A stretch of 32,143 bases of DNA from a virus, in the IMG/VR virus record IMGVR_UViG_3300045988_128600; one strand, 5' to 3'. This document shows positions 3,001-31,110 of this stretch, one piece after another. The notes beneath the pieces were generated by a model. It saw only the letters and a program-made list of their open reading frames with translations. It ran no database searches and was not told where the DNA came from. The translations under genes and the position numbers were made by a program. Within the stretch, counting starts at the first letter, position 1; every line of letters starts with the position of its first letter.

Positions 3001-6000
3001 AAAATCTGAGTTATTAAGTAATGAGCTTGAAAATAATAAAGAAGCTGCTGAAGACGTTGCTCTTTATACCATGAAGATGAATAATGGTATAGAGAAATTA
3101 AGTGATAATTTTGATGGATGGGCTAATGTATTAAAGAAATCTGATTCTGCTTCACAAGAGTATTATGATGCAATGGTTGATATTAAAGATGCCATGTCTA
3201 ACGTTTTAGGTGTTTCAGAAGAATTTTTAAGTGATGATTTTATTATCAATAATTTAGATGATATTGCATTAGCGGCAAATGGTGACGCTGAAGCTATTGA
3301 TCGTTTAGCTTTAGCAGCCAGTAAAGATATTGTTATAAACTTAGATTTTGAAGATGAAACAACAAAACAAGAAGTTTTAAGTTTGTATGATGATTTGATG
3401 GCTGAAATGCCCGATCTTGAAGTTGGAGCTACTTTAGATGATAAAGAGTTCTTAACAAAACTTAATAATTTTGTAAAACAATCAGGAATGAGTGTTGAAC
3501 AAGCTTAGGCTTTTTTCAATAGTTTGGGATATGAACCAGAATTTGTAACAGATACAAAAACTGTAAAAAGAAGTATTCCTCAAGAAAGAACTCATACGGA
3601 TTATGAAATTACTGACGGAACTATAGATATTTTAGGGTAGGAATGGCACATTCCTACAATAGACAGACTTACAACTACTAGTGTTAGTGATTACGTTGAT
3701 GTAGATGAAAAAATTCAAGTTCCTGCTTTTGGTACAGATAATCCATAGGTAAAATCTTTAACTAAAAGATCAAGTGGAATAATGAACAATTTTTCAAGTG
3801 CCAACCCTGGAGCTAAAGGTTCAGGAGGCAAAGGGGGAAGTAAAAATAAGCCAACCAAAGAAGCTCTAACTAAAAAAAGCGATGTTGTTGATCGTTATAA
3901 AGAAATTACTGATAATATCAATGATACCACTCGTGCTTTAGATAAAGCTAATAAATCGGCAGATAGACTTTGGGGTAAGGCTCATCTTGATGCGATGGCT
4001 AAAAGTAATAAATTAACTTTAAAAGAAATTGATTTATTAAAACAAAAGCAAAAAGAAGCTTAGGCTTATTTAAAGACAGATAAAGCTACTTTATAGCAAG
4101 CTGCGAAAAAAGCTGGAATTACTTTCACATTTGATGAAGATGGTGACATTTCTAATTATACTGATTAGATGACTAAACTTTATAATTAGCTCATAGCTGC
4201 TTAGAATAAAGCAAATTCTTTTTCTACAAAAGATGCTCAAGACGCTTATAAAGAAGCAACTTTAGATCCGATTCAAGAGAAAATCAATGAGTTGAAAGAT
4301 GCTATTAAGCAATATGAAGATACAAGAGATTTAGTCGAAGAATTAACTGATGATATCCAAGATAAAATAAACGAATGGCAAGATAGAAATTATCAAATGC
4401 TTACTTATGAAGTTGAAATAAAGGTTCAATTAGATGAAAATGATACTAAAAAATTAGAATATTATTTTGATAAATTAAGTAATAATATTTATAAAGCCGC
4501 TGAAGCTCTTGGATATTTACAAGGTCAATTTGATCCAGTAATTAGTCAATTAGGAACTTATGAGAATTTCTATAGTCAGTTAAATAACGCTTATTCTAAT
4601 GGAGAAATTTCTCAAGAAAATTATATCGAAGGCTTACAAGACGTGTATGATAATACATTAGATAATTTAAATGCTTTGTAGGATTTAGATAAAGAAATGC
4701 TTGAATATTATGGTAATACTATAGATTTAGCAAATGATGAATTGTCTAAATATACAGATCATATGGAGCATTTGACTAGTGTATTGGATCATTATCGTTC
4801 TATTATTACTTTGTTAGGTAAAGATAAAGATTATGATAAAGTTTTATCAGTTTTAAATGGAACTGCTTAGACTAAGAAAAATAATTTTGATACTTCTAAA
4901 CAATGGTATGAAAGCTTGAAGCGTGAACGTGATGCAGCGGCCGCAGCTTTAGCCAGTTCAACTGATGAGGCTGAGCGTGAAGTGCTTCAAAAGAATTATG
5001 ATGCTATATTAGCTGCATTCGATGAAGCGGAAGAGGATATGCTTTCTAAAGCTGAAGAATATGGCGAAGCATTAAAAGAAATTCTTACTACAAAGATGGA
5101 GCAAGCTGCGGATGAAATGAATAAGCAATTAAGCACTACTAAAGTAAGTATTAATGGTAATAACTTTAATATTTCTGGTTGGGATGCTTTAAATGATGCT
5201 TTGGATAGAATGTCTTCTTATCAAGATGAATATTTAACAAAAACTAATTAGATTTATGAAATGAATAAACTACTTAATAATGTTAATTAGGCTATTGATA
5301 AAACAAATAATCAAGCAGCTAAAAATAGATATCAGCAATTTACTAAAGAGATTGAATAGTTAAGAGATAAAGATAAATTAAGTCAATTAGAATTAGAAAT
5401 TGCTTAGGCTAAATATAAAGTGCTTGAAGCGCAAATCGCGTTAGAAGAAGCTCAAAATGCAAAGTCTACAGTTAGATTACAACGTGATAATGAGGGTAAT
5501 TTTGGTTATGTGTATACCGCAGACCAAGAGAAAGTAAATGACGCGCAATAGGCTTTAGCAGACGCGGAAAATGATTTATATAACATTCGTCTTGATGCGA
5601 CAAATAAATATGGTCAACAAAAACTTCAATATGAGAAAGAGTTGGCTGAAAAACTTGCGGAACTTGATTAGAAGGCTGCGGAAGACGCGGTTTATCGTGA
5701 GACTACATATCAACAAGAACGCGCATTAGTAATTCAACAATATACTGATTTAATTACTACTGCTGGAAACCTTTACGCGAAAGCGCAAGAAGAGGATAGC
5801 AGAGTCGTTCAAGATGCTTGGGTAAATTCTTTTGATATTATCAAAGATAATAGTAATAGTTGGAAAGATACTATTACTGAAAATACTAATATTATCAATG
5901 ATACATTTAAAGAATGGCAAGACAGTATGGATGAAATTAGTAAAATTGTTGGTGATGATTTAAAAGATACTCAATAGAAAGTTAAAGATGTTACTGATGA

Positions 6001-16010: not shown

Positions 16011-18284
16011 ATGGGTTTTTATGGTAATATAACTAATACTTCAAAAACAACCTTCGCTTTTGATAGAATTTATAATAATAGACTTCAAATGGATAATAAT
16101 TGTGCTAGCGATGGAGTGTTTTTAGGTCGCTATGTTTTAGTCGAGTATGGTCTTCCAGCTTCTTAGTATATAATAGGCTATCTTGACAATAATGGGAATA
16201 TGTATGATGATCCTACTGATAGAAGTGATTCTCATATTATTTTATGCGAAAAAGGAAAAATGGTAAAAATTAGTAAAAGTAGTTATTGGTATTTATATAC
16301 GGGAGATATCAAATCTGATGGGTCTCCGTATTGGAGATATCTTACTAGAATTACTAATGATAGAGTTGATGATGAATAGTATAATAAAAATTATCAAATA
16401 GATTATCCTGTTTATGGACGAGGATATGATTCTACTGTTTGGATAAAACAATATATTAATAATCAAGAAACTTATATTTAGATTGCTGAATTAAATACCG
16501 TTGTTCCAAATTTTTCAATTTATCCATTGCTTCCTCAAGACCCATATGTTGCGGTTGATAACGCTAGTATTGTATATCAACCAGGTAAGTATTATTATTA
16601 CGATGAAACTGATAGTCATTATAAATTAGATAATAATGATACTAAAACTGAGGGACGTATTTATTATTTAGAAAGTGAACTTGGACCGGCGATAACCACG
16701 GATCAAAGTAGCACAAATTTACTTTATAAATTAAGAGTTCCCACTAATTTCCAGCTTGATTTAGATGATAATAATATCTATTATAATAAAGAAGGATTTA
16801 GTAAGATAAAACGTTCTTATGATAGTATTACAGAAAATAGTATTAATTATAAATTAAGTCAGTCAGGATATAAATTTTATTATAATGTAGAATAGGATAA
16901 TGTTGTTGGTGAACCGATTGAAGATGGCTATGACCGCAAATCACTTGTAGTAAAGCTTCCTGCTCTTGGTAATGTGGTATGTGAAACTTATGATTTACTT
17001 TATGGCCAAAATCGTAATGATTCTGTTACTAATTTTGATAAAACTAATGTTAAGGGAGCTTTAAATACTCTTAATAAAAAAATGAATTTAGAAAAATTAG
17101 AGACTAATAAACTTATTTACTTTTCTACTGAAACTGACAATGATATTAATGACAATTATATAAAATCTGCAACTATTTAGGGAGATAATCTAATTTCAAT
17201 AAATGCAGATATTGAAAAAAATGGTGGAGCTATTAAAATTACCCATAATAATTTAGATGTAAATAAAGCATCAAAAAGCTATGGTAAAGATGTTGATTTT
17301 AACACTTTTGGTTCTTCCATTACTTTACCTAAATTATTTACTGATAGAGCTGGGCATGTTGTAAAAGAAGAAACATTCTCAGTTAGTATCCCAAAAGGCT
17401 CTTATGAAAATACTAAAGAGGGTAATGTTCTTACTTCTTTAAGTTTTATTGATACTACTGGAGCTTTAAGTAGTGAGAAATCTTATTTAGGGACTTTAAC
17501 ATTAGGAACTGGATATACTACTAATGATAAATTAAATACTATCACTAAAGATACAACTCTTAATGATAGTATTAGTAAGTTGATTGACAATAGCGATAGT
17601 AAATATAATACTTTATTAGGTCAAACTAATAATAGTTTTGGCAAAGACACTGTTCCAACTCTTTATGGCTTAAGACAAGGGATTAATAGTGATAGAGATA
17701 GTATTAGTAATTTAAGTGATAAAATTGATATTTTAAATGGAACTGTATCTACTACTAATTCTGTTGCTTATAGTATTAAATAGGCTATTGATAAATTAGA
17801 TAAAATTGATAATAAAGTAGACAAACAATTTGTTACAGCGGTAGAAGAAAAAGATGGTTTAATAACTGTTTCAAGAAGCGCCTTACAAGAAAGTGATTTA
17901 CCTATTACTTTTGATGGAACTTATAGTAATAGTAATAAAGTTGCTACTATGAGTAGTTTAAATACTTTAAAAGCAAATCTTTTAGGTGATTATACTGGTA
18001 CATTAGCTGATGTAAATACATTAGCAAATAGTAAATTAAATGAAAGCGCGGTGCGCAGTCTTACATATAATGCGACTTCTGGAAATAATGGAGCTAAAAC
18101 AATAGCAGAAATGTTTGATTTAATTGTAGAATTATAGAATAAAAATACATAGTTAAATACAATTATCAAAGCCTTATAGAATAAAGATATTGAATTAAAT
18201 AATTTAATTGTTGGATTAAGAACTGATGTTGATGCTTTAAAAAATAGCTCAAATAATACTGATACTCCATCTGAAACAACTTAA
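16011..18284 (+). CDS. Tail fibre-like protein (757 aa) with a C-terminal coiled-coil, TAG read through
   Basis: ATG 16011 is translationally coupled to the upstream gene. Frame 0 is continuous to TAA 18282-18284, with the track ORFs 16527, 16974, 17580 and 17949 all frame 0. It has Ser/Thr/Asn-rich beta segments and a heptad-like C-terminus (LNTLKANLLGD...ALQNKDIELNNLIVGLRTDVDALK). A terminator follows. Confidence 0.7.
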
Positions 18285-18291
18285 TTTAAAT

Positions 18292-18325
18292 AAAAGGTTT
18301 GGTCTTAATAGGCCAAACCCTTTTA
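18292..18325 (+). terminator. Rho-independent terminator
   Basis: GGTTTGG (18296-18302) pairs with CCAAACC (18313-18319), with a further possible C:G pair inside, then TTTT. Confidence 0.65.
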
Positions 18326-18372
18326 GTATTGATTAAAAAGATTTTATAAATAATAGAAAGGAGTCGATTATC

Positions 18373-18954
18373 TTGCCTAATACATTAAATAAATATGTAA
18401 AATTTGTCAGAGGTTCTAAAACCGCTTTTGAAAATTTAGGGACGAAAAGAGACAATGATACTTTATATTTTATTTATGGAGAAAATGATTCTTCTGGAGA
18501 ACTTTATTTAGGTAGTCGTCTAATTTGCGGTGGAATTAGTTCCGCAGGTAAGTTAAGCGATTTAAGTGATATTGTTCTTAATGAAGTTAAGACAAATCAA
18601 GTTTTAATTTATAATGAAGAACAAAAGAAATGGGTTAATTAGGGTTTAGAAAATAATGAGACTTTAATTAATTCTATTGTTGAAAAATTATCTACAGAAG
18701 AAAATTTAGCTAAATTAGCTCCTGTTTTTAAGGGCACAGTCCCAGGTTTAGTTCCAGTTTCTTTACATGAAATTAAAGGAGAACATATTCTTACTGATGC
18801 AGGTACATGGATTAATATGCCAGTAGGAACATTAACTTAGGGAGATATTGAAACAATTAATATAGCTAATAAATATTTAGTAGATAAAGGTCCTGATAAT
18901 TTGGTAACTCGTGTTGAAGCAGTTGAACAAACTGTTTCTTGGACTGATATTTAA
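18373..18954 (+). CDS. Small fibre-associated protein (193 aa) with the shared N-terminal anchor motif
   Basis: TTG 18373 lies 9 nt after the SD AAAGGAG. It has one in-frame TAG at 18640-18642 and a TAA at 18952-18954. The N-terminus VKFVRGSKTAFENL...LYFIYGENDSSGELYLGSRLI resembles the common phage tail-fibre / Mtd-N-type N-terminal domain. Confidence 0.65.
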
Positions 18955-18968
18955 AGGAGTGAAAAAAA

Positions 18969-20630
18969 TTGAACGTTAAGTTTTTAAAAGGCTCTCAAGC
19001 CGAATTTGAAAATGTGGCAGGTAGATATAAACCTGGTGCGTTTTATTTAGTAATTAATGACGATAAGTCCGCCGAAGATTATAAAAAGCCAAGCCGTCTT
19101 TATTATGGCGTAGATGAAAATAATTGTGTTCCTGTAAATCAAGGTATTAATGTAGTTGATACTACCGCAGGTTTACCCCAAGGTTTTACTCAAAACACTG
19201 CTGGTGAATTTTATTATGTAAAAGATAAAAATATTTTATGTATTAATAATGGTAAAGGTTGGATTCAAACTAACACCGATACTGTTTTAAATACTAATAA
19301 AAAAGATAGCAATGTATCAGTAAACAGCAATCCTGAAAAACCTAATGGAGTTTCTATAACTAATACTATTGCTGATAGTAGTGGTAATATTATTACTGAG
19401 ACTTATGATATTATAGGTAGCGATTATATCCAAATTGAAGCAATTCCTGCTGTTGATGATAAAGGCGTAGATACTGTTAAACTGAGTTTAAAAGGAATCA
19501 ATTATCAATTAAGCTCTTCTTTAAATGAAAAAACTTTAAATGTTAATTTAAAGAATAGTGATACTGATGCAGGTAATTTTAATATTATTGCTGGTAGTAA
19601 TGTTAATATTGCTGAAACTTCTACAGGAAACTATACTTTAAGTGTAAATAAAGCTGTTGATAGTATTGATGTAATTAATCGTGTTGGTGGTACTGGTTTT
19701 ATTGCTTCTATTAGTGGTCCTGGCGTTGAAGGAGCTGGTAATGGTACGACTTTATCTGCTGATATTGATCCAGAAATTGCTTTAGAAGGCAAGACTGGTG
19801 GCTACAAATTTAAAGATGGCGTTTTAACTCTTCCTGTTTATAGCAAGCAAGATATTGATAATCAACTTAGAAGTATTAATGCTATGGTATTTCGTGGCGG
19901 ATTCCAAGTTAAAGATGGAGCTATTGCCTATGACAATTCTGATATTACTGAAATTACTGAAGGTAATACTTTTATTTATACTGGAGCCGAAGACACACTT
20001 TGGAATGGTCATTATTTACGTCCTGGTGATTTAATTATTGCTTCTAGTGAAGAGGTTAATGGTGCTATTACTGGTACTATTAATTGGACCTATGTTCCTT
20101 CTGCCGATGATCCTGTTACTGAAATTGAAGGAGCCAATGATAATAGTACTGCTGGTTTTATCATTAAACTTGGTTCTACCAAAAAACTTTTAGATTATGC
20201 TCTTAACGGTGAAAGTGGCATTGTTTTAGAAACAAAAGTTTTAACAGATTCAAAAGGTCAACCTACTAATTCTAAAGTTGTTACTATTAAACATAGTAAT
20301 ACTTTAACTGTAAATACTCCAGTTTCTCAATCCTATGCTGATGAACAAACTATTACTATTAATGAGCCAACTGAAATTGATGCTCAAGGGCATGTAATTA
20401 AATCTACTCAAAAAACTTTTACTGTAAAAAATACTCATCAAGAAATTGCTAATGCAGATTATACAGTAAATGGTACTGATACTTTAATTCCTAACCTTAA
20501 AGTTGCTGGCGCTGATCTTGAAGGCAAACCGCTTGTTTTCACTAGCAATAGCCTAAAAGTTAATGTTTCTGCGGCGACTGTGACTGATGATGCTAAAGTC
20601 AATTTTGAGTTAGAGTGGGGAACATTCTAA
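18969..20630 (+). CDS. Putative receptor-binding / tail fibre protein (553 aa), entirely free of TAG codons
   Basis: TTG 18969 follows the SD aaaggagtg. It is an uninterrupted standard-code ORF ending at TAA 20628-20630. The N-terminus VKFLKGSQAEFENV...FYLVINDD...RLYYGVDENN carries the same anchor motif as the genes at 18373, 20749 and 31183. It is Gly/Thr/Asn-rich and beta-rich, and a terminator follows. Confidence 0.8.
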   Translation: MNVKFLKGSQAEFENVAGRYKPGAFYLVINDDKSAEDYKKPSRLYYGVDENNCVPVNQGINVVDTTAGLPQGFTQNTAGEFYYVKDKNILCINNGKGWIQTNTDTVLNTNKKDSNVSVNSNPEKPNGVSITNTIADSSGNIITETYDIIGSDYIQIEAIPAVDDKGVDTVKLSLKGINYQLSSSLNEKTLNVNLKNSDTDAGNFNIIAGSNVNIAETSTGNYTLSVNKAVDSIDVINRVGGTGFIASISGPGVEGAGNGTTLSADIDPEIALEGKTGGYKFKDGVLTLPVYSKQDIDNQLRSINAMVFRGGFQVKDGAIAYDNSDITEITEGNTFIYTGAEDTLWNGHYLRPGDLIIASSEEVNGAITGTINWTYVPSADDPVTEIEGANDNSTAGFIIKLGSTKKLLDYALNGESGIVLETKVLTDSKGQPTNSKVVTIKHSNTLTVNTPVSQSYADEQTITINEPTEIDAQGHVIKSTQKTFTVKNTHQEIANADYTVNGTDTLIPNLKVAGADLEGKPLVFTSNSLKVNVSAATVTDDAKVNFELEWGTF

Positions 20631-20691: not shown

Positions 20692-20728
20692 GGGGAAAGA
20701 TGAAATATTCTTTCCCCATATTTTTTTT
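20692..20728 (+). terminator. Rho-independent terminator
   Basis: GGGGAAAGA (20692-20700) pairs with TCTTTCCCC (20709-20717) around the loop tgaaatat, followed by an 8-T run. Confidence 0.7.
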
Positions 20729-20748
20729 AGGATAGAAAGGAGTAAATT

Positions 20749-23700
20749 ATGTCTAAGATACGTTTTCGTCCTGTATAGGGTCCAGAAAAAAAAATAAAAG
20801 AATATCCTCAAAGCGATGGATATTTTTATGTGGCAACAGATACAGGCCGAGTTTATTTAGATACGGCAACTGAAAATAAAATGCCAATAGGGTCTAGTGG
20901 TGTTCAGGTAATTTACGGTACAGATAATACTGTAGAAATTGAATATGATGCGGATGAAAACCCAGTGGCTTATTTAATTCTTTTATCAAAATTATCTATA
21001 ACAAATTGTCATATAGATGATTTAATTTTAAATTTAGACGGATGTTTTTATCGAATTTTAGGATTTGCTTTAAATGAAAACCGCGAAGAATGCGCGAGAT
21101 GTGAAAAATTAACTGTCGCCGGGGCAGGCGGTGGCGGAGAAGGAGACTCTGAACAAAAAGTTTTAGGAACTGTTTCTTTAACAAGAATTCCACCCGATAG
21201 TCCTGTTGATGTTTTGAATGAAGAAAATGTTAAAGTAAAGGTATTGGTTAAATGTAGAACTGTTGGAGGAGTTCCACAATCTTCGTCTGTGCAAGGAATT
21301 ATAACTATAAGTGAAATTAAAAGTGCTACAGAAAAAGAAATTTATTATACTTCTCCTCCTACTACTTATGAGCACAATATTCCGCAAGAAATTGATTTAA
21401 CTAATATTTTAAGAAATTCATGTTCTAGTGAAATTAATTTTAGTATTTATTATAATCCTGATAAAGAAAATAATAGATTTTAGAAAAGCTCTGATACTAT
21501 TAATATTAATAAACATCATCTTTCTTTTAGTTGGAAAGAAAGTAGTTTTAGTAATGATAGTCCAGTTGACAATGGACAAATATCTGTTAGTTGGTTAATG
21601 TCTGAAGATATCGCCAGATCTGTTGAAGTTTATTTTGATGATTATTTAGTTTTAGATAGAACTTATAGTGATACTGATTCTTCTTCTGAAGATTCTTTTG
21701 TTATTACTCCTGATACAAATATATTAGGGACTGATAAAGTTTCTACTTTAAAAAATTATTTTACTCATGGTGAGCATATAATAAAAGCAAAGTTATATTT
21801 AATGAATAATTCTAAAAAAGGTGCAGGAACAGATTTTATTCAGAAAGAAATCGTTATTCAAGAACCAGGTAATAAAATGCCTTTAATTTGGGTACAAGAT
21901 TTTAAAACAGAATATTATACTTATGAGACAATAAGAATTCCTTTTAAAGTATTAGATCCAAATAATAATGGAGCTTTTATAACTCTTTATAAAAATGGTG
22001 TTCAAGTAGGAACTAGAGAATTAGATAGTTCGCAAGTTAGAGAATGGCAATATTGGGAAATTACTAATTTAACTGTAGATGATAGTTCTTATTATACTAT
22101 TAAAGTTGGTACTGATCCTTATTCTTATTCTCGTAATTTTAATTTTACAATTTTAATTGACCCTTTAAGAGATATGAAGTTAGTAAAAAAAGATAATTTA
22201 AAGGTTAATTTTATAGCTACTGGTCGTTCTAATTCAGAAGGAAAATTAGGTCGTGAAACTTATTTAATTAATAATAATAAATATGTAGAATTTAAAAATT
22301 TTAATTGGTATAATAATGGTTGGGTTTTTGATGAAAATAATACGACTTGTTTACGAGTAAGCAATGGTGCTGAAGTATCTATCCCAGTCGGAAAAATGGC
22401 TTTTAAAGATGAATCATCATCTGCTACTATTGAGATTCAATTTAAAATAAAGAATCCTCAAAATTATGCTAAAGTTATAACTAAATATACTAGATATAAA
22501 GTAAGTAAAGATAATTGGGAAGATAATGATGCTTGGGATAAATTTAAAGCCCAAAATAAATATCTTAATTATGATGAGTTTTTAACTAAAGAATATTTAC
22601 CAACAACTAATTATACTTATGATGATTTAGAATATAATAAAATAGAACAAGATTTTAATTTAAAGAATTTAGTTTGCGCATATGGTAAATTAGGGAATTC
22701 TGTCTCTCCTGGTATTTATTTTAGTCCATAGGATGCTGTATTTACAGCTAACGGGGCTCAAGAAACAGTTTCAGTTGATTTTATTGAAAATGAAATGCTA
22801 AATCTTTCATTTGTTTATACTAAAAAGAAAAGTGATATAGAAGGCGGAAATTCTAAATTATTAGAAATTTTTATGAATGGCGTTTTAACTAGTGTTGTAC
22901 GTTGTAGTAGTGATGTTTGGAATATTGATTCTGATTTCATTAAATTTATGTCTAATACTTGTGATATTGATATTTATAGTATTAGAGTTTATGATACAGA
23001 TTTAACTATTCCTGAAATAGTCCAAAATTACGCTTTTGATAAGAGAAGTATAAAACAGTGGGACCAAAAAGATCTTTATGAAAACAATACGGTATTAAAA
23101 GATGATGTATTTTCTTATACTAAAATGAAAAAGTATAATGATAATCATCCAACTGAACCTTTAATGCCCTATATTATTTTAAGGACTACTAAAAATAATA
23201 AAAATAATACGGATAATAGATTACCTTATTCTAAAGCAAAAGGAAGCTAGGAAGGAACTTTAGAATTTGTTAACACTGCTTTAGACGCTGCTTACAATAG
23301 TGGTGAATTAGAAAAAGTTGCTATAAAAGAAGGATGGAAACCTGTAATCGAAAAAAATGAAGAAACATAGGAAGAAGTAGTAAAATATACTGTGGTATAG
23401 AATTATTATATGCATCATTGTCCTAGTTTTATAACTGTTCTTAATGGATGTACTTTCCAAGTTCAAGGTACTTCTTCACAATTTTATCCTCGTCGTAATT
23501 ATAAAGCTAAATGCAAAGAATCAATGCTTTTAAATAGAGGCCCATTTGCTGAAGACTATAAAAAAGCAGGAGACTAGTATAATGAAGATATAACTAAACA
23601 TCCTTGCTATTTAGAGTGGTTTTATATGGATAATAAAACAGTTGGTACTACTAAATTTACTTTAAAAATAGATTTTATGGAATCTTCTGGAGATTATAAT

Positions 23701-26700
23701 AGAGGATTTGCTAATTTAGTTAACGAGATTTATTCTAAACATCCAGTAGAAGACTATAAGGATTCTTTTGATAATTATAATTTATATGGAAATTTAGAAG
23801 ATTATCGCACTTCGGTAAAAGGATTCCCCGTTTTAGCTTTCCATTATATGTCCAACGATGATAATACTTACTCTAAGGAAAATAGTAATAACTGTATTTT
23901 TATTGGCAAATATAATATGTTATTAGATAAAGGCTCAGATGAATGTTTTGGATTTAAACCAAATAAAAAGATTTTACAAAATCAAATTACGGGCAATCCT
24001 AAAGTAAGAGATATGGCAGAATGTTGGGAATTTTAGAACAATTCAAGAACTTTTTGCTCTTTCCGCGACCCTTGGAATCGTTATAAATTATCATTTAGAA
24101 ATCCTAATATGGTAATCCCTCCAGATGGAGATAATCCTGAATTAGTTAAAGGCGCTCCAAAAGTCGTTGATTCTTTTGAACCAAGATATAATCCAAATGA
24201 TGATTTAATTGCTGATAATTTATTTAGTTTAAAAGAGTGGCTTGATCCAGATGGGACATAGACTAAGATTGTTGGGGAAGAATTAAAAAATGTAGCCCCA
24301 GATAGACTTACTAAAAAAGAAATAGTTGATGAAATTACTGGTATAAAATCTATTAAATGGATTATAAAGAACCCAGACGGAGAAGAAATAGAATTTAATG
24401 TTGCTAATGATACAAGTAAACAAGAATTACTTTTAGCTTTAATGTCTAACTGGGAAGACGCAGTTAGTTGGGTATGGAGTACTTGTTTAGATTGCGATAT
24501 TGAATTTGATGATGGATAGAAATTAAAAATTCCATCTATGGGCATTTATACTAAAGTTGATGGATTAGCTGAAGCTATATATATTCCTAATGTCTATTAT
24601 GTTGAAGATGGAGTTAATGAAAATGGAAAAATTATTTATAAATTAGCTTCTGAAGAATATAACTCTGAAACAAGATATTATAAGTAGATTAATGAAAATA
24701 ATAGTTTAAAGTATGTAAGCATAAAACTTACAAATAATTCAGATAAAGTATATAAAGCAAATATTTATTATCTTTTAACTGATAGTAAAAATGAAATTTA
24801 TGTATTAAGTTCTGATAAATTTAATTCTTCTTTAGACTATTATTCTTTTAATAAAAATGAAGAAGGTATTGAGGAAAGATGGAAATTACCTAATCCAGTA
24901 ACCTATGGCTCTATTACTTATACTAAAGATAGTAAAGAATACCGTCAAGCTAAATTTAAAAATGAATTAAGTAATTTCTTTGATATTGAATATTTAGCTT
25001 CTTACCTTTTAATGACAGAAATTTTTGAATGTTATGATTCTCGTGGAAAAAATGCAATGTTTGCTTCTTGGGGACCTCAAAAAGGCAATATTCAAAAATC
25101 TACTGGTAAACAACATTATGTTTGGTATCCTATCTTTTATGATATTGATACTCAATTAGGTATTAATAATACTGGTATCCCATCCTTTGAATACTATATT
25201 GATGCTACTGAAGAAGGAAGTTTTTCAACTAATGATAGTGTTCTTTGGAATAATTTTTACACTTTCTTTAGAAGCAAGATGGTGGATAAATATAAGCAAT
25301 TAATGGGAACTCAAAATAATTCTTATAGTCCAAATGATTCAAGAGTAAATAAAATTTTTACTAAAGGAGCAGGAAGCGGAGCTAAAAAGAGTGATATCGT
25401 AGATAAATGGTATCGTACTGATCCATCGGTATTTCTTGATAGTTATGCAGTTTTGGGAGACCGACCAATTATTGCTTTAAGTTTAGACGAAGAATTTAAG
25501 TATATTATTCCAACAAACTCTAAAGCTGAAAATATGCCAGTGTTTGGTCGTTTAACTGATGGAGGTTCATATGAGGTTGAAGATGATAAATATTTTTATG
25601 CTTTGCAAGGAGATAGAAATCTTTATCGCGCGCAATTTTTAGCTAATCGTCTTAATTACATTGACTCTTGGTTGACTGTTGGCACTTATGCCAGAAATGG
25701 CGGAGGAAGCTATATTAGAAGTCGTATTTCTGCGAACAATCCTAAGAATACATCAGATAAATGGATTGAAGGTACTAACACTCAAAATATGGAAGGATTA
25801 ATTACAAATTCTCAGTATTGGAAAAATGGTGCTGAATTCGAAGAAAAAAATCATATGTTTGATGGTGAGTATTGGATTAACATGGAACCCGCGCGTAATG
25901 CCTATGTTACTATTGGTACAGATGGAGAGAATTTTCCTTCAAAAAAATATAATGGTTTAGAACCGGTTAAATATGTAGCTCCTGATATTAAAAAAGGAAT
26001 TATGAGTAGCGGTAATTATAAAGAACAATTATATTACATTTATGGAATGGATCAAATGAAATCTCTTGGTGATTTAAGCAAATTATATTTCCAAGAGTTT
26101 GCAGCTGAAGGAAAAATGGAGCGTTTAACTGATTTATTATTAGGATATGATGGAAAAGATGAAAGCGGTAATGAATATTTTAATAATGATGTAAATGACT
26201 GGTCTTTTTCAAAAGGCGGAATGCCTTTACTTAAAGAAATGAATCTTTGTAATATTAACTTTAAAAAAGACTAGGGGGCATTAGATTTAACTAAAAGTGA
26301 AAAACTTGAAAACTTTAGAAATACTAAATCTAATATCCCGAGAGTTAATTTTGCTCCTGGAGTAGCTTTAAATACTTTATATTTAACCAATCGAACAAAT
26401 TATTTAAGTTTAATAGAAGCTAATTTATTAACGAAATTAATAACTAACTATATATATCCTGAAAAAAATCCAATTACTGGAAAACTTGAGGTCTCAGATG
26501 AAAATCGTGGTTTATATATTCAAGATCTTACTGATGCTGAAGAAGGAAAAGAAAAAACCGAGATAAGAACTTTTGATATTCGAGGCGGTAATTTAGGTTA
26601 TAATAGTTATGAATTGTTACGCAAATATATTTCAGCTAGTAAAAATAGTAAATTAGATTTATCTAATTGTATTATTAATTTAAATAATGTTTAGTGGAGT

Positions 26701-28740: not shown

Positions 28741-28782
28741 TTAGGTTAAATAGGAAAAGAAACTATTTAACCTAATTTTTTT
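28741..28782 (+). terminator. Strong rho-independent terminator, possibly bidirectional
   Basis: A perfect 13-bp stem, TTAGGTTAAATAG (28741-28753) against CTATTTAACCTAA (28763-28775), with the loop gaaaagaaa. It is flanked upstream by an 8-A run and downstream by a 7-T run. Confidence 0.75.
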
Positions 28783-28800
28783 AGAAAGGAAGAGATAGAT

Positions 28801-30477
28801 TTGATAGTTAAAAATGATAGTGTTATCGAACAAGCTAAATGGGAAGAACTTCAAAAGAAAATCAATACTTTAGCTAAAGATAATAAAATAAAAAACGTTA
28901 ATGGAAAAATCGTTGAAATAAAATCTATTGAAGACTATTATAGTAATATTACTGGTATCGTTCAAATGAAGAAGTTAGATCCATCTGTTCTTCGCATACC
29001 TTTAGATGAGCCTATTATAAATATAAATGCTGATACTCGTCAAATTGAATTAACTAAAGAATTTGGAAAAACTCAATTACTTACTGTTGAAAATGATCAT
29101 TTAGCAGAAACAATTTATTTTCAAATTGATAGATATTTTGATTTACAAGATTTAGCAGCTGATGATATTAAAATTTATATTTAGTATTATCTAAATGATC
29201 AAATTCAAGGTTATTCTGAAGCTATTTGCCCTGATATTGGTACTGCTGGAAAATTAATTTTTGGTTGGCAAATTAGTGATGAAGTAACTAGTGAATCTGG
29301 TACTTTATAGTTTTCTATTATTTTCTTCAAAAAGAATCCAAAAGATAATAATAATTTAATGTATGTGTTTAATACATTACCTGCGCAAATGGTTATCAAT
29401 AAAACTTTAGACATTGATGAAGATTTAGTTACTGCGCAACCTGTTGATTATTTAACTGGGTATTTAGAAAGTTTAATCGATTCAAAGAAATCCGCGGGCT
29501 TTGGAGTCCCTGATAATGTGGCTTTCTTGACAAGTATTTTAAATAATAAATCAGTTTATTTAACTGGTGATAAATTATATGCTTTAGCTTATAATGATAC
29601 TTTAAACAATCCAGATAATACTACTATTGAATATAAATGGATTTGTAATTATAGAGGAACTAATACTGAATTAAAAAATGGTATTGGTTATGAATACAAA
29701 AAAATTGTTGATGATAATAGTATCTTTAGTGGAGATATGGCTTATAATGAAAAATTGACCTATTTTACTAAAAATGGAGATACTTATATTAATAGTAGTA
29801 GTGATATTAATCTTGAAAATTATGTTGCTAAAAAGAATGACCTTTATTTAAAAGTTCAATATTGTGAAGTTGATGGATGCGGAAGTTATAGTGTGACAGC
29901 ATTTGGCGCAACCGCGAATCAAGTAAGTAAAGAAGTTAAATGGGCTGGATTAGCTATTTCTGTTGAAGGTATTAGCGAAGATTTTAAAATTATTCTTGAT
30001 CCCTCCCCTGATAATGGATGTTATTATGGCTCTTCTAATACAATTACTGCTATTGGATAGAATGATGAAGGAGTTCAATGTACTTATCTTTGGACAAAAA
30101 ATGGGTCTGAATTTAGTAATGAAAAAACTGTAACTTTAACTCAAGAAGATAATTACACTTTAACGGTTCATGGGTATAAAAATAAAGATAATATAGATTA
30201 TGGTCCAATTAATTTTACCAATTATTTTGACCCTATTAATTTAGTACCTACTGGTGAAGTAAAAACTGAAAATGGAAAATATATTGTTAATATCACTAAT
30301 ACTAGTGAGTTGGGAAATGGAATTTATGAATATTAGTGGAAAAATGCTGAAGGTGTTACTCAAATAACTACTTCTGGGACTAATAACGCAATAGAAATAA
30401 ATGAAAATATTACTCAAGTGGCTGTCATTATTAAAAAAGGTGAAAGAAATTCAAAGCCAGGAGTACTTACGATATAA
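28801..30477 (+). CDS. Tail fibre / baseplate protein (558 aa) with Ig-like C-terminal repeats, TAG read through
   Basis: TTG 28801 follows the SD gaaaggaag. Frame 1 is continuous to TAA 30475-30477, with the track ORFs 28801 and 29359 both frame 1 and in-frame TAGs at e.g. 29182 and 30058. The N-terminal 110 aa (DHLAETIYFQIDRYFD...) are paralogous to the next gene. The C-terminus (CTYLWTKNGSEF...YTLTVHGYKNKD) looks Ig-like. Confidence 0.7.
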
Positions 30478-30489
30478 GAGGTAAGATAA

Positions 30490-31110
30490 ATGATAACTAA
30501 TCCAACTGATTATTATAGCGTTTTACATCAAATACAAGATGAAAATTTTCCAGTAAAATATCCAGCTCTTCCTGCTCCAGAAGATGAAAAATTAGTTTAG
30601 GTAAATTTAAATTCAAGGATTATTAGTAATGAAAATAATTATATTACAGTTGAAGGCGATCACGCTGCTGAAATTATTTATTTTGAAATAGATAGATATT
30701 TTGACACTATGGATTTAACTAATATGATGTGTATTATTCAGTATATTAATGCTGATAATGAAAAGCGCATTTATCCAGTTCCATATTATGACACTTTAAC
30801 TCATAAAGATAAAATTATTTTTCCTTGGGTTTTAAATTATAGTGCTACTAAAAAATCTGGCAATTTAAATTATATGATAACTTTTTACAAAATAGAAAAA
30901 GATTCTAATAATTTATTATATAATTTAAACACATTGCCAGCAAGCCTTTAGGTTTATTCTAAACTTAATTTAGATTCTATTGTAAAAGAAGAAGATTATT
31001 ATGTAATTGATGATAGCCAAGTAGTCCAACAAATTTGGGAACGTTTAGCTCGTTTGGAAGGATTTGTTGGTGGTAATGGGTTGGATGTTTATTGGATTGT
31101 TCTTGAATAA
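30490..31110 (+). CDS. Fibre/baseplate-associated protein (206 aa), paralogous to the N-terminal domain of the 28801 gene
   Basis: ATG 30490 follows the SD AAGAGG. Frame 1 runs to TAA 31108-31110 with a TAG at about 30598 read through. It contains GDHAAEIIYFEIDRYFD, against NDHLAETIYFQIDRYFD in the upstream gene. Confidence 0.7.

Follow-up and report, generated by a model that had tools for sequence, protein, structure and literature searches.

The DNA considered here, referred to as the window, is a stretch of 32,143 nucleotides (32.1 kilobases, kb) from the virus record IMGVR_UViG_3300045988_128600. It contains a tail-fibre-like gene, g8 (18969-20630, + strand), that is free of in-frame TAG in a phage that otherwise reads TAG as glutamine. 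When TAG is treated as sense, open frames on the + strand that are 100 codons or longer add up to 31.9 kb, with slight overlaps, compared with 19.1 kb under the standard code, and treating TGA as sense gives no gain in the summed + strand frames. TAG as sense restores the long, contiguous, same-strand genes of a code-15 late module. There are 12 such genes in the window, consecutive and all on the + strand (g1-g12): g1 encodes a tape-measure-like protein of more than 2,254 residues, g2-g6 encode baseplate-like and tail-tip-like proteins, and g7-g12 form a run of fibre-like genes that includes g9, with its 2,581 residues, and g12, which has a weak match to the tail-fibre family phrog_2710. The GC content in the window is 25-34%. 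Identical or near-identical copies of the window are found on gut-metagenome and IMG/VR contigs of 97-197 kb, and neither megablast nor tblastn gave a match to it among 50,697 deposited phage genomes. The phage behind the window is a gut phage of roughly 190 kb that reads TAG as glutamine, and the window holds its tail and fibre module.

The g8 gene has 553 codons and runs from a TTG start, which is kept in 24/24 close orthologues, to a TAA stop. Its ribosome-binding site, read from the sequence as AAGGAG (18954-18959, + strand), lies nine bases before the TTG and overlaps the TAA stop of g7 (18373-18954, + strand; 193 codons), the gene directly upstream, which carries two in-frame TAGs (18640 and 18838). 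An earlier note on this DNA had described a 553-codon frame without in-frame TAG and a TTG start with its own Shine-Dalgarno sequence, and direct counting and the position of the AAGGAG bear out both descriptions. The same note reported about 20 glutamines encoded by CAA or CAG; it was right that TAG is not among the codons used, although the actual number is 16 and all of them are CAA, with no CAG. Less fortunate was its attribution to g8 of a terminator of its own. The terminator-like hairpin with a T-run that follows g8 (20689 to about 20720-20730, + strand) is common to g7 and g8, since the gap from the end of g7 to g8 measures 14 bases and contains no hairpin, and the previous terminator-like hairpin (18296-18319, + strand) lies after g6. 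The two genes therefore probably form one transcription unit bounded by these two hairpins. They also have an N-terminal motif in common (VKFVRGSKTAFENL in g7 and VKFLKGSQAEFENV in g8; 29% identity over 90 residues). The earlier note had called this motif a shared fibre anchor, which is clear for g7 and g8 but faint in g9 and g12. Residues 10-35 of g7 resemble PF24243 ('Phage tail tip domain'), but weakly and below the threshold.

In every relative examined g8 sits between g7 and the giant g9, and it is more variable than the baseplate genes, with 81-97% identity among relatives as against 92-100% for g3-g5. Sliding comparisons of DNA identity with the loci L024, L026 and L139 of related genomes delimit an exchangeable block that comprises the C-terminal end of g6 together with g7 and g8 (about 17900-20600, + strand). 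Against L024, identity of 80-93% drops to 51-70% at about 17,900-20,600 and then returns to 80-95%; against L026 the fall starts within g7 (about 18,450-18,600) and the downstream recovery reaches only 58-79%, with g7 and g8 at 53% and 36% identity to the window while g4-g6 stand at 88-98%. Two alleles of g9 (about 70% and 94-99% identity) assort independently of g8. Across g8 alleles the N-terminal roughly 100 residues and a C-terminal ELEWGTF are kept and the middle is highly divergent; g8-like genes at this one locus fall into 26 clusters at 60% identity. The gene thus has the place, downstream of the tape-measure and baseplate genes, and the hypervariable, mosaic build with conserved ends that would be expected of a fibre protein. 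No described fibre family was found to resemble it in sequence or in fold: sequence and profile searches of Pfam, PHROG and PDB gave no match, the AlphaFold2 model is all-beta but of low confidence (predicted local distance difference test score, pLDDT, 61; predicted template-modelling score, pTM, 0.24), and a Foldseek comparison of this model with PDB returned only noise, with best TM-scores of about 0.1 or lower. Neither g8 nor its surroundings yielded a diversity-generating template/variable repeat pair. The fixed locus, the variability and the sharp drops in identity agree with the description of g8 as a cassette-like receptor-binding gene in the earlier note, and g7-g8 is an exchangeable fibre cassette that is swapped between related genomes. 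Position, variability and the all-beta prediction suggest that g8 functions as a fibre or receptor-binding protein.

How surprising the complete lack of TAG in g8 is depends on the rate taken for its surroundings. The earlier note had put the flanking genes at 2.3% TAG codons, and had accordingly expected 12-13 TAGs in g8 and a probability of none of roughly e^-12.7. The measured frequencies per codon are 1.04% in g7, 0.97% in g9 and 1.19% in g6, and 1.36% over all genes other than g8; only g1 and g2 reach 2.0-2.1%. The expected number of TAGs in g8 is then 5.1-7.5, and the probability of finding none is 5e-4 to 6e-3 by a Poisson calculation per codon, 0.0013-0.0045 when glutamine codon labels are shuffled, and 0.0032 under a beta-binomial model that includes gene-to-gene scatter, or 0.038 after Bonferroni correction for 12 genes. 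Treated as a scan statistic, the longest TAG-free run in the window (599 codons) has P = 0.045-0.15. The absence of TAG from g8 is real, but e^-12.7 overstates its significance by orders of magnitude.

Comparison with close orthologues places this absence in context. Among 24 such sequences (type A; 80-97% identity), and likewise in 20 related genomes, the number of TAGs ranges from 0 to 3, with zero limited to the window, L001, L005-L008 and L022, so that the TAG-free state is confined to one sublineage. The TAGs of type A, which occur in orthologues at 80-92% identity, fall in five alignment columns, all of which correspond to glutamine codons of the window (58, 100, 299, 313 and 460), and CAA, CAG and TAG all occur at these same sites. 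Position 460 is TAG in 12/24 sequences, as where YADEQTITINEP of the window aligns with YTDEqTIVINEP of L002-L004, and database proteins of 458 residues prove to be g8 orthologues cut at the in-frame TAG that matches Gln-460. The occurrence of TAG in columns that are otherwise CAA or CAG shows directly that TAG encodes glutamine. Counting columns site by site, which is a rough control for shared ancestry, glutamine columns that are ever TAG number 5/15 in g8 and 113/208 in the other genes of g3-g10 (Fisher P = 0.18), and near-fixed TAG columns 0/15 and 38/208 (P = 0.08). Divergent alleles at the g8 locus (36-40% identity) carry three TAGs in L024, five in L026 and seven in L139/L140; among the seven are the invariant Gln-58 and Gln-100. 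In L216 (IMGVR_UViG_3300045988_122222), the g8-like gene that begins at 3751 uses TAG for 12/18 glutamines, where the locus mean is 0.35; the g8-like family tolerates heavy recoding.

These alleles bear on one of the two explanations offered in the earlier note, namely that g8 must be translated before or without the suppressor, early in infection or in naive hosts, and for that reason excludes TAG. Such an account draws some support from the ribosome-binding site and start codon that g8 has to itself and from the TAG-free window allele. It requires a strict exclusion of TAG, however, and to judge by the alignments there is none: most orthologues and the divergent alleles contain TAG, at five glutamine sites in the former and in numbers of 3, 5, 7 and 12 in the latter. 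Moreover, g8 probably shares a transcript with the TAG-bearing g7 in the middle of the late module, and this co-transcribed gene and every surrounding virion gene, whose products are the partners of the g8 protein, need the suppressor in any case. Suppressor-independent translation of g8 is hardly credible.

The other explanation in the earlier note was recent acquisition of g8 from a standard-code phage or host. A foreign gene should betray itself by deviant synonymous usage or deviant GC content at third codon positions (GC3), and by homologues in the donor group, and as far as the sequences tell g8 does neither. Its GC3 of 0.137 lies within the range of its neighbours (0.12-0.16). The excess of GC in g8 sits at codon positions 1 and 2 and therefore reflects amino-acid composition. 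In synonymous usage, g8 is equalled or exceeded in its distance from the remainder of the window by 25% of size-matched chunks. The tetranucleotide profile of g8 stands out further than any other in the window (0.383, versus 0.293 +/- 0.037), but most of this deviation stems from the makeup of the protein, which is rich in Gly, Val, Thr and Ala and poor in Tyr, Arg and Met, because writing the g8 protein in the codon usage of the window as a whole is enough to reach 0.348 +/- 0.015. A foreign composition of g8 was accordingly rejected, as neither GC, GC3, synonymous usage nor tetranucleotides give a signal beyond amino-acid composition. Among 5.8 billion proteins searched, 47 were homologous to g8; every one that was followed to its contig is located between g7 and g9 of a related phage, and all close homologues belong to recoded genomes. 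The g8-like genes of standard-code relatives are only 27-31% identical. With native GC3 and synonymous usage and no close standard-code homologue, recent acquisition from such a source finds no support.

A subtler form of import is nevertheless to be weighed, since a standard-code sister lineage in the same sample makes import from standard-code relatives plausible in principle. This sister (loci L082-L093, L096, L108, L203-L212, L224, L227, L242 and L248) has a capsid-position protein that is 87-89% identical; read in the standard code, 91-94% of its head module is open, and in-frame TAG is essentially lacking from both its head and its fibre module. Intermediates with weak recoding are also present (L186, L213, L214 and L228), with a TAG share of glutamine codons of 0.05-0.16. 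On this proposal the TAG-free blocks of the fibre region are recombinant segments with a past in standard-code or weakly recoded relatives, which entered by homologous exchange of fibre cassettes and have yet to accumulate TAG. Besides g8, the blocks in question are two in g9, at 21484-22726 (+ strand; 415 codons, 11 glutamines) and at 24688-26269 (+ strand; 528 codons, 14 glutamines), and outside them g9 has 1.5% TAG. The alternative g9 allele, at about 70% identity, carries 2-6 TAGs in the first block and 7-12 in the second where the window allele has none, so TAG poverty in the fibre region looks specific to particular blocks and haplotypes. Together with the coexistence of differently coded lineages, the visible mosaicism of the fibre genes and the joint excess of the three longest TAG-free runs over shuffles, this speaks for such a history. 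Against it, no standard-code donor was found by scans with g8, the g8 allele alignment, the second g9 block or the alignment of that block. The second block is only 54% identical to the window in standard-code relatives, their g8-like genes stand at 27-31%, and no cluster of g8-like genes at 60% identity mixes standard and TAG-recoded genomes. The native GC3 and synonymous usage of g8, and the restriction of its close homologues to recoded genomes, also argue against such a past, and we regard it as improbable.

Scans with a conserved part of g9 gave access to a wider family of 80 loci, from strongly recoded, weakly recoded and standard-code genomes, in most of which a g8-like gene precedes the g9-like gene; scanning with the baseplate gene g5 yielded no further close relatives. 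The g8-like alleles of strongly recoded genomes form 16 clusters with at most 60% identity to one another. In 14/16 of them the TAG share of glutamine codons lies below the mean of the locus, and in two it lies above (Wilcoxon P = 0.008); pooled, they have 53.5 TAGs where 90.1 are expected, about 0.6 times the locus rate. Individual clusters range from no TAG to 12/18 glutamine codons, and TAG-free members occur in three. Positional controls in eight allele types put g8-like genes at 0.42-0.47 times expectation, g7-like genes at 0.9, g9-like genes at 1.0 and g6-like genes at 1.3. The g8-like family under-uses TAG roughly two-fold relative to its neighbours. It is matched in this by g10 (28801-30477, + strand), a late gene with TAG at 4/22 glutamines in the window, as g10-like genes stand at 0.40 times expectation with 7/7 allele types under-using TAG. 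TAG use differs reproducibly, in other words, between late gene families of this phage group. At the pooled rate of the g8-like family (0.19) the probability of no TAG among 16 glutamines is 0.035, and several g8-like clusters have TAG shares of 0-0.08, which makes a zero unremarkable within the family.

Late genes further upstream show the same tendency in a far stronger form. They were read in a relative, IMGVR_UViG_3300045988_119030 (loci L114/L029), whose fibre region is 94-99% identical to the window. At about 16.6-23.7 kb in the coordinates of that contig there are four TAG-free late genes: one of 305 residues, one of 375 residues in the capsid position (phrog_4088), one of 198 residues, and a 'virion structural protein' of 333 residues in the major-tail position (phrog_2729, E = 1e-56). 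Their neighbours have 2-4% TAG. A fifth TAG-free gene there, of 193 residues and just before the tape-measure gene, is inconsistent across relatives (TAG share 0.155). Across 63 fetched loci, in which each of the four genes is present in 58-63, the TAG share of their glutamine codons is 0.005-0.025, and for the capsid-position and major-tail-position genes it is 0.005-0.014 (about 60 genomes); in the same 63 loci the terminase, portal and connector genes have shares of 0.15-0.61. The capsid-position, 305-residue and major-tail-position genes are also set apart by frequent CAG, more NNC codons and a GC3 of 0.24-0.32, with CAG making up 10/12 glutamine codons of the capsid-position gene; the 198-residue gene has no such bias. 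What these four genes show looks like genuine selection against the use of TAG in virion proteins that are abundant. The earlier note had held that its finding would lose its significance if other late genes were equally TAG-free, and the capsid-position gene, the major-tail-position gene and two others are.

If selection of this kind keeps TAG low in g8-like and g10-like genes as well, the window allele of g8 could be its fully purged end state. A suppressor tRNA would compete with host release factor 1 at each TAG, every TAG would lower the yield of full-length protein, and proteins needed in many copies would lose their TAGs. Much fits with this: the under-use recurs in 14 of the 16 independent clusters, with TAG-free alleles in three; g10-like genes are equally depleted; the four structural genes of abundant type are almost free of TAG in about 53-57 of 58-63 related genomes, and avoid it there although CAG is one transition away from TAG; and selection for and against recoded stops according to gene family has been proposed by Borges et al. 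(bioRxiv 10.1101/2021.08.26.457843; later Nat Microbiol 2022). On the other hand, alleles with TAG at 7/18, 7/19 and 12/18 glutamines exist, close orthologues have TAG at the conserved positions 58 and 100, and g8, with its TTG start, has the lowest GC3 in the module and none of the codon bias seen in the capsid and tail genes. That the window allele has been purged in this way is unlikely. A broader version would see TAG avoidance as graded, from near absence in the four structural genes through about half the expected rate in g8 and g10 and average use in g7 and g9 to enrichment in g6, g2 and the connector genes, with TAG-free fibre alleles as the purged end state rather than products of chance; this is possible, though we hold it with some doubt. 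If the gradient does track protein demand, it would provide a genomic read-out of the cost of stop-codon suppression.

The explanation that we consider likely is that g8 is a native, exchangeable fibre gene whose lack of TAG is a lineage-specific extreme on top of the under-use in its family, neither foreign in origin nor independent of the suppressor. CAA, CAG and TAG would be interchangeable glutamine codons that drift in these genomes; TAG is used by the g8-like family, as by g10, at between about half and 0.6 of the rate found in neighbouring genes; and in the sublineage of the window the few TAGs of sister lineages are CAA, which brings the count to zero. The zero itself would have no function of its own. 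The family-level under-use may result from mild selection that removes TAG from proteins produced in greater quantity, since suppression has to compete with the release factor, and the capsid-position and major-tail-position genes would show the same selection in extreme form. Mild selection linked to protein demand is the leading candidate for the cause of the family under-use, with a block-wise recombination history as the main alternative. Four observations weigh against this explanation or parts of it. Taken alone, the single-gene probability of zero TAG in g8 is small (1e-3 to 5e-3). The three TAG-free runs jointly exceed shuffles, with P = 0.011 over the whole window and 0.053 over g3-g12, and pure site-by-site drift is therefore not a full account of the fibre region. 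A small tetranucleotide excess remains in g8 after the control for composition (0.383 versus 0.348 +/- 0.015). Lastly, g8 genes have a GC3 of 0.10-0.14, the lowest in the module, use CAA only and do not have the expression-type bias of the TAG-free capsid and tail genes, which weakens an account of the family under-use in terms of expression cost.

Several further features of the module deserve mention. A shared sequence, ATAGAAAGGAG, with similar flanks precedes both g7 (18341-18371) and g9 (20720-20750), and a related form, TTAGAAAGGAAG, is found ahead of g10 (about 28781-28800); a terminator-like hairpin precedes each copy, and these sites may represent a common late promoter or translation-initiation region. 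Downstream, g10 and g11 (30490-31110) have a paralogous N-terminal domain (VENDHLAETIYFQIDRYFD and VEGDHAAEIIYFEIDRYFD, respectively), accompanied by a DNA repeat at 29081 and 30644. In g9, residues about 1420-1510 (25000-25300 in the window) contain the motifs MTEIFECYDSRGKN, WYPIFYDIDTQLGINNTGIPSFEY and SVLWNNFY, which are very strongly conserved, even where whole alleles share only about 40-50% identity (including L176-L249), and suggest an enzymatic or structural core. This motif region has no match in Pfam; a likeness to CotH-type kinases is unsupported by Pfam and is not claimed. No tRNA was found in the window. Relatives (L050-L056) have a tRNA array for Thr, two Ser, Gly or Lys, Cys and sometimes Leu, near which lies a sequence paralogous to the C-terminal portion of g12 (46-49% identity), and no suppressor tRNA with a CUA anticodon was found in the fetched pieces of relatives, which amount to a fraction of the ~190 kb genome.

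Had the claim held as first stated, it would have meant either that a gene had moved between genomes of different code or that a host-range protein stood outside the recoded programme, and neither is the case. The mere absence of TAG from a gene of a recoded phage does not mark that gene as foreign or as early-expressed, and codon counts of this kind should be compared across the gene family before they are interpreted. The standard-code sister, at 87-89% identity in the capsid-position protein, offers a usable system in which to follow the spread of recoded codons.

Mosaic cassettes for tail fibres and receptor-binding proteins combine a conserved N-terminal attachment region with variable distal parts. 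The g8 gene resembles them in its conserved locus, conserved ends, divergent middle and sharp block boundaries, and differs from them in having neither detectable homology to a described fibre family nor a confident structure.

As regards codon use, the closest parallel is with the recoded phages in which in-frame recoded stops occur in only 26-71% of genes, with gene families enriched or depleted for them, and in which integrases were tested for avoidance of such stops, and lysis genes and some tail genes for preference (Borges et al., bioRxiv 10.1101/2021.08.26.457843). Here as there, TAG stands for glutamine, recoding is concentrated in structural genes while only some genes carry TAG, some families are enriched and others depleted, and close relatives use different codes. 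In contrast to that report, the under-use seen here is in distal fibre genes, together with a near-absence of TAG from the capsid-position and major-tail-position genes of a family of roughly 190 kb phages. The crAss-like phages, whose late genes include some in code 15 (Yutin et al. 2021, PMC7886860) and for which decoding of TAG as glutamine has proteomic support (Peters et al. 2022, PMC9523058), are similar in that TAG encodes glutamine in tail and fibre proteins and standard-code gene callers split the genes, which here has left database fragments of 458 residues (g8) and 89 residues (g7). They differ in that no sequence relationship to the window phage was found, the deposited genomes having given no match, and the gene order of the window, a tape-measure gene followed by baseplate genes, is of the long-tailed phage type. 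Uneven use of TAG among the genes of recoded phages is already known as a general phenomenon, and the absence of TAG from g8 belongs to this ordinary heterogeneity.

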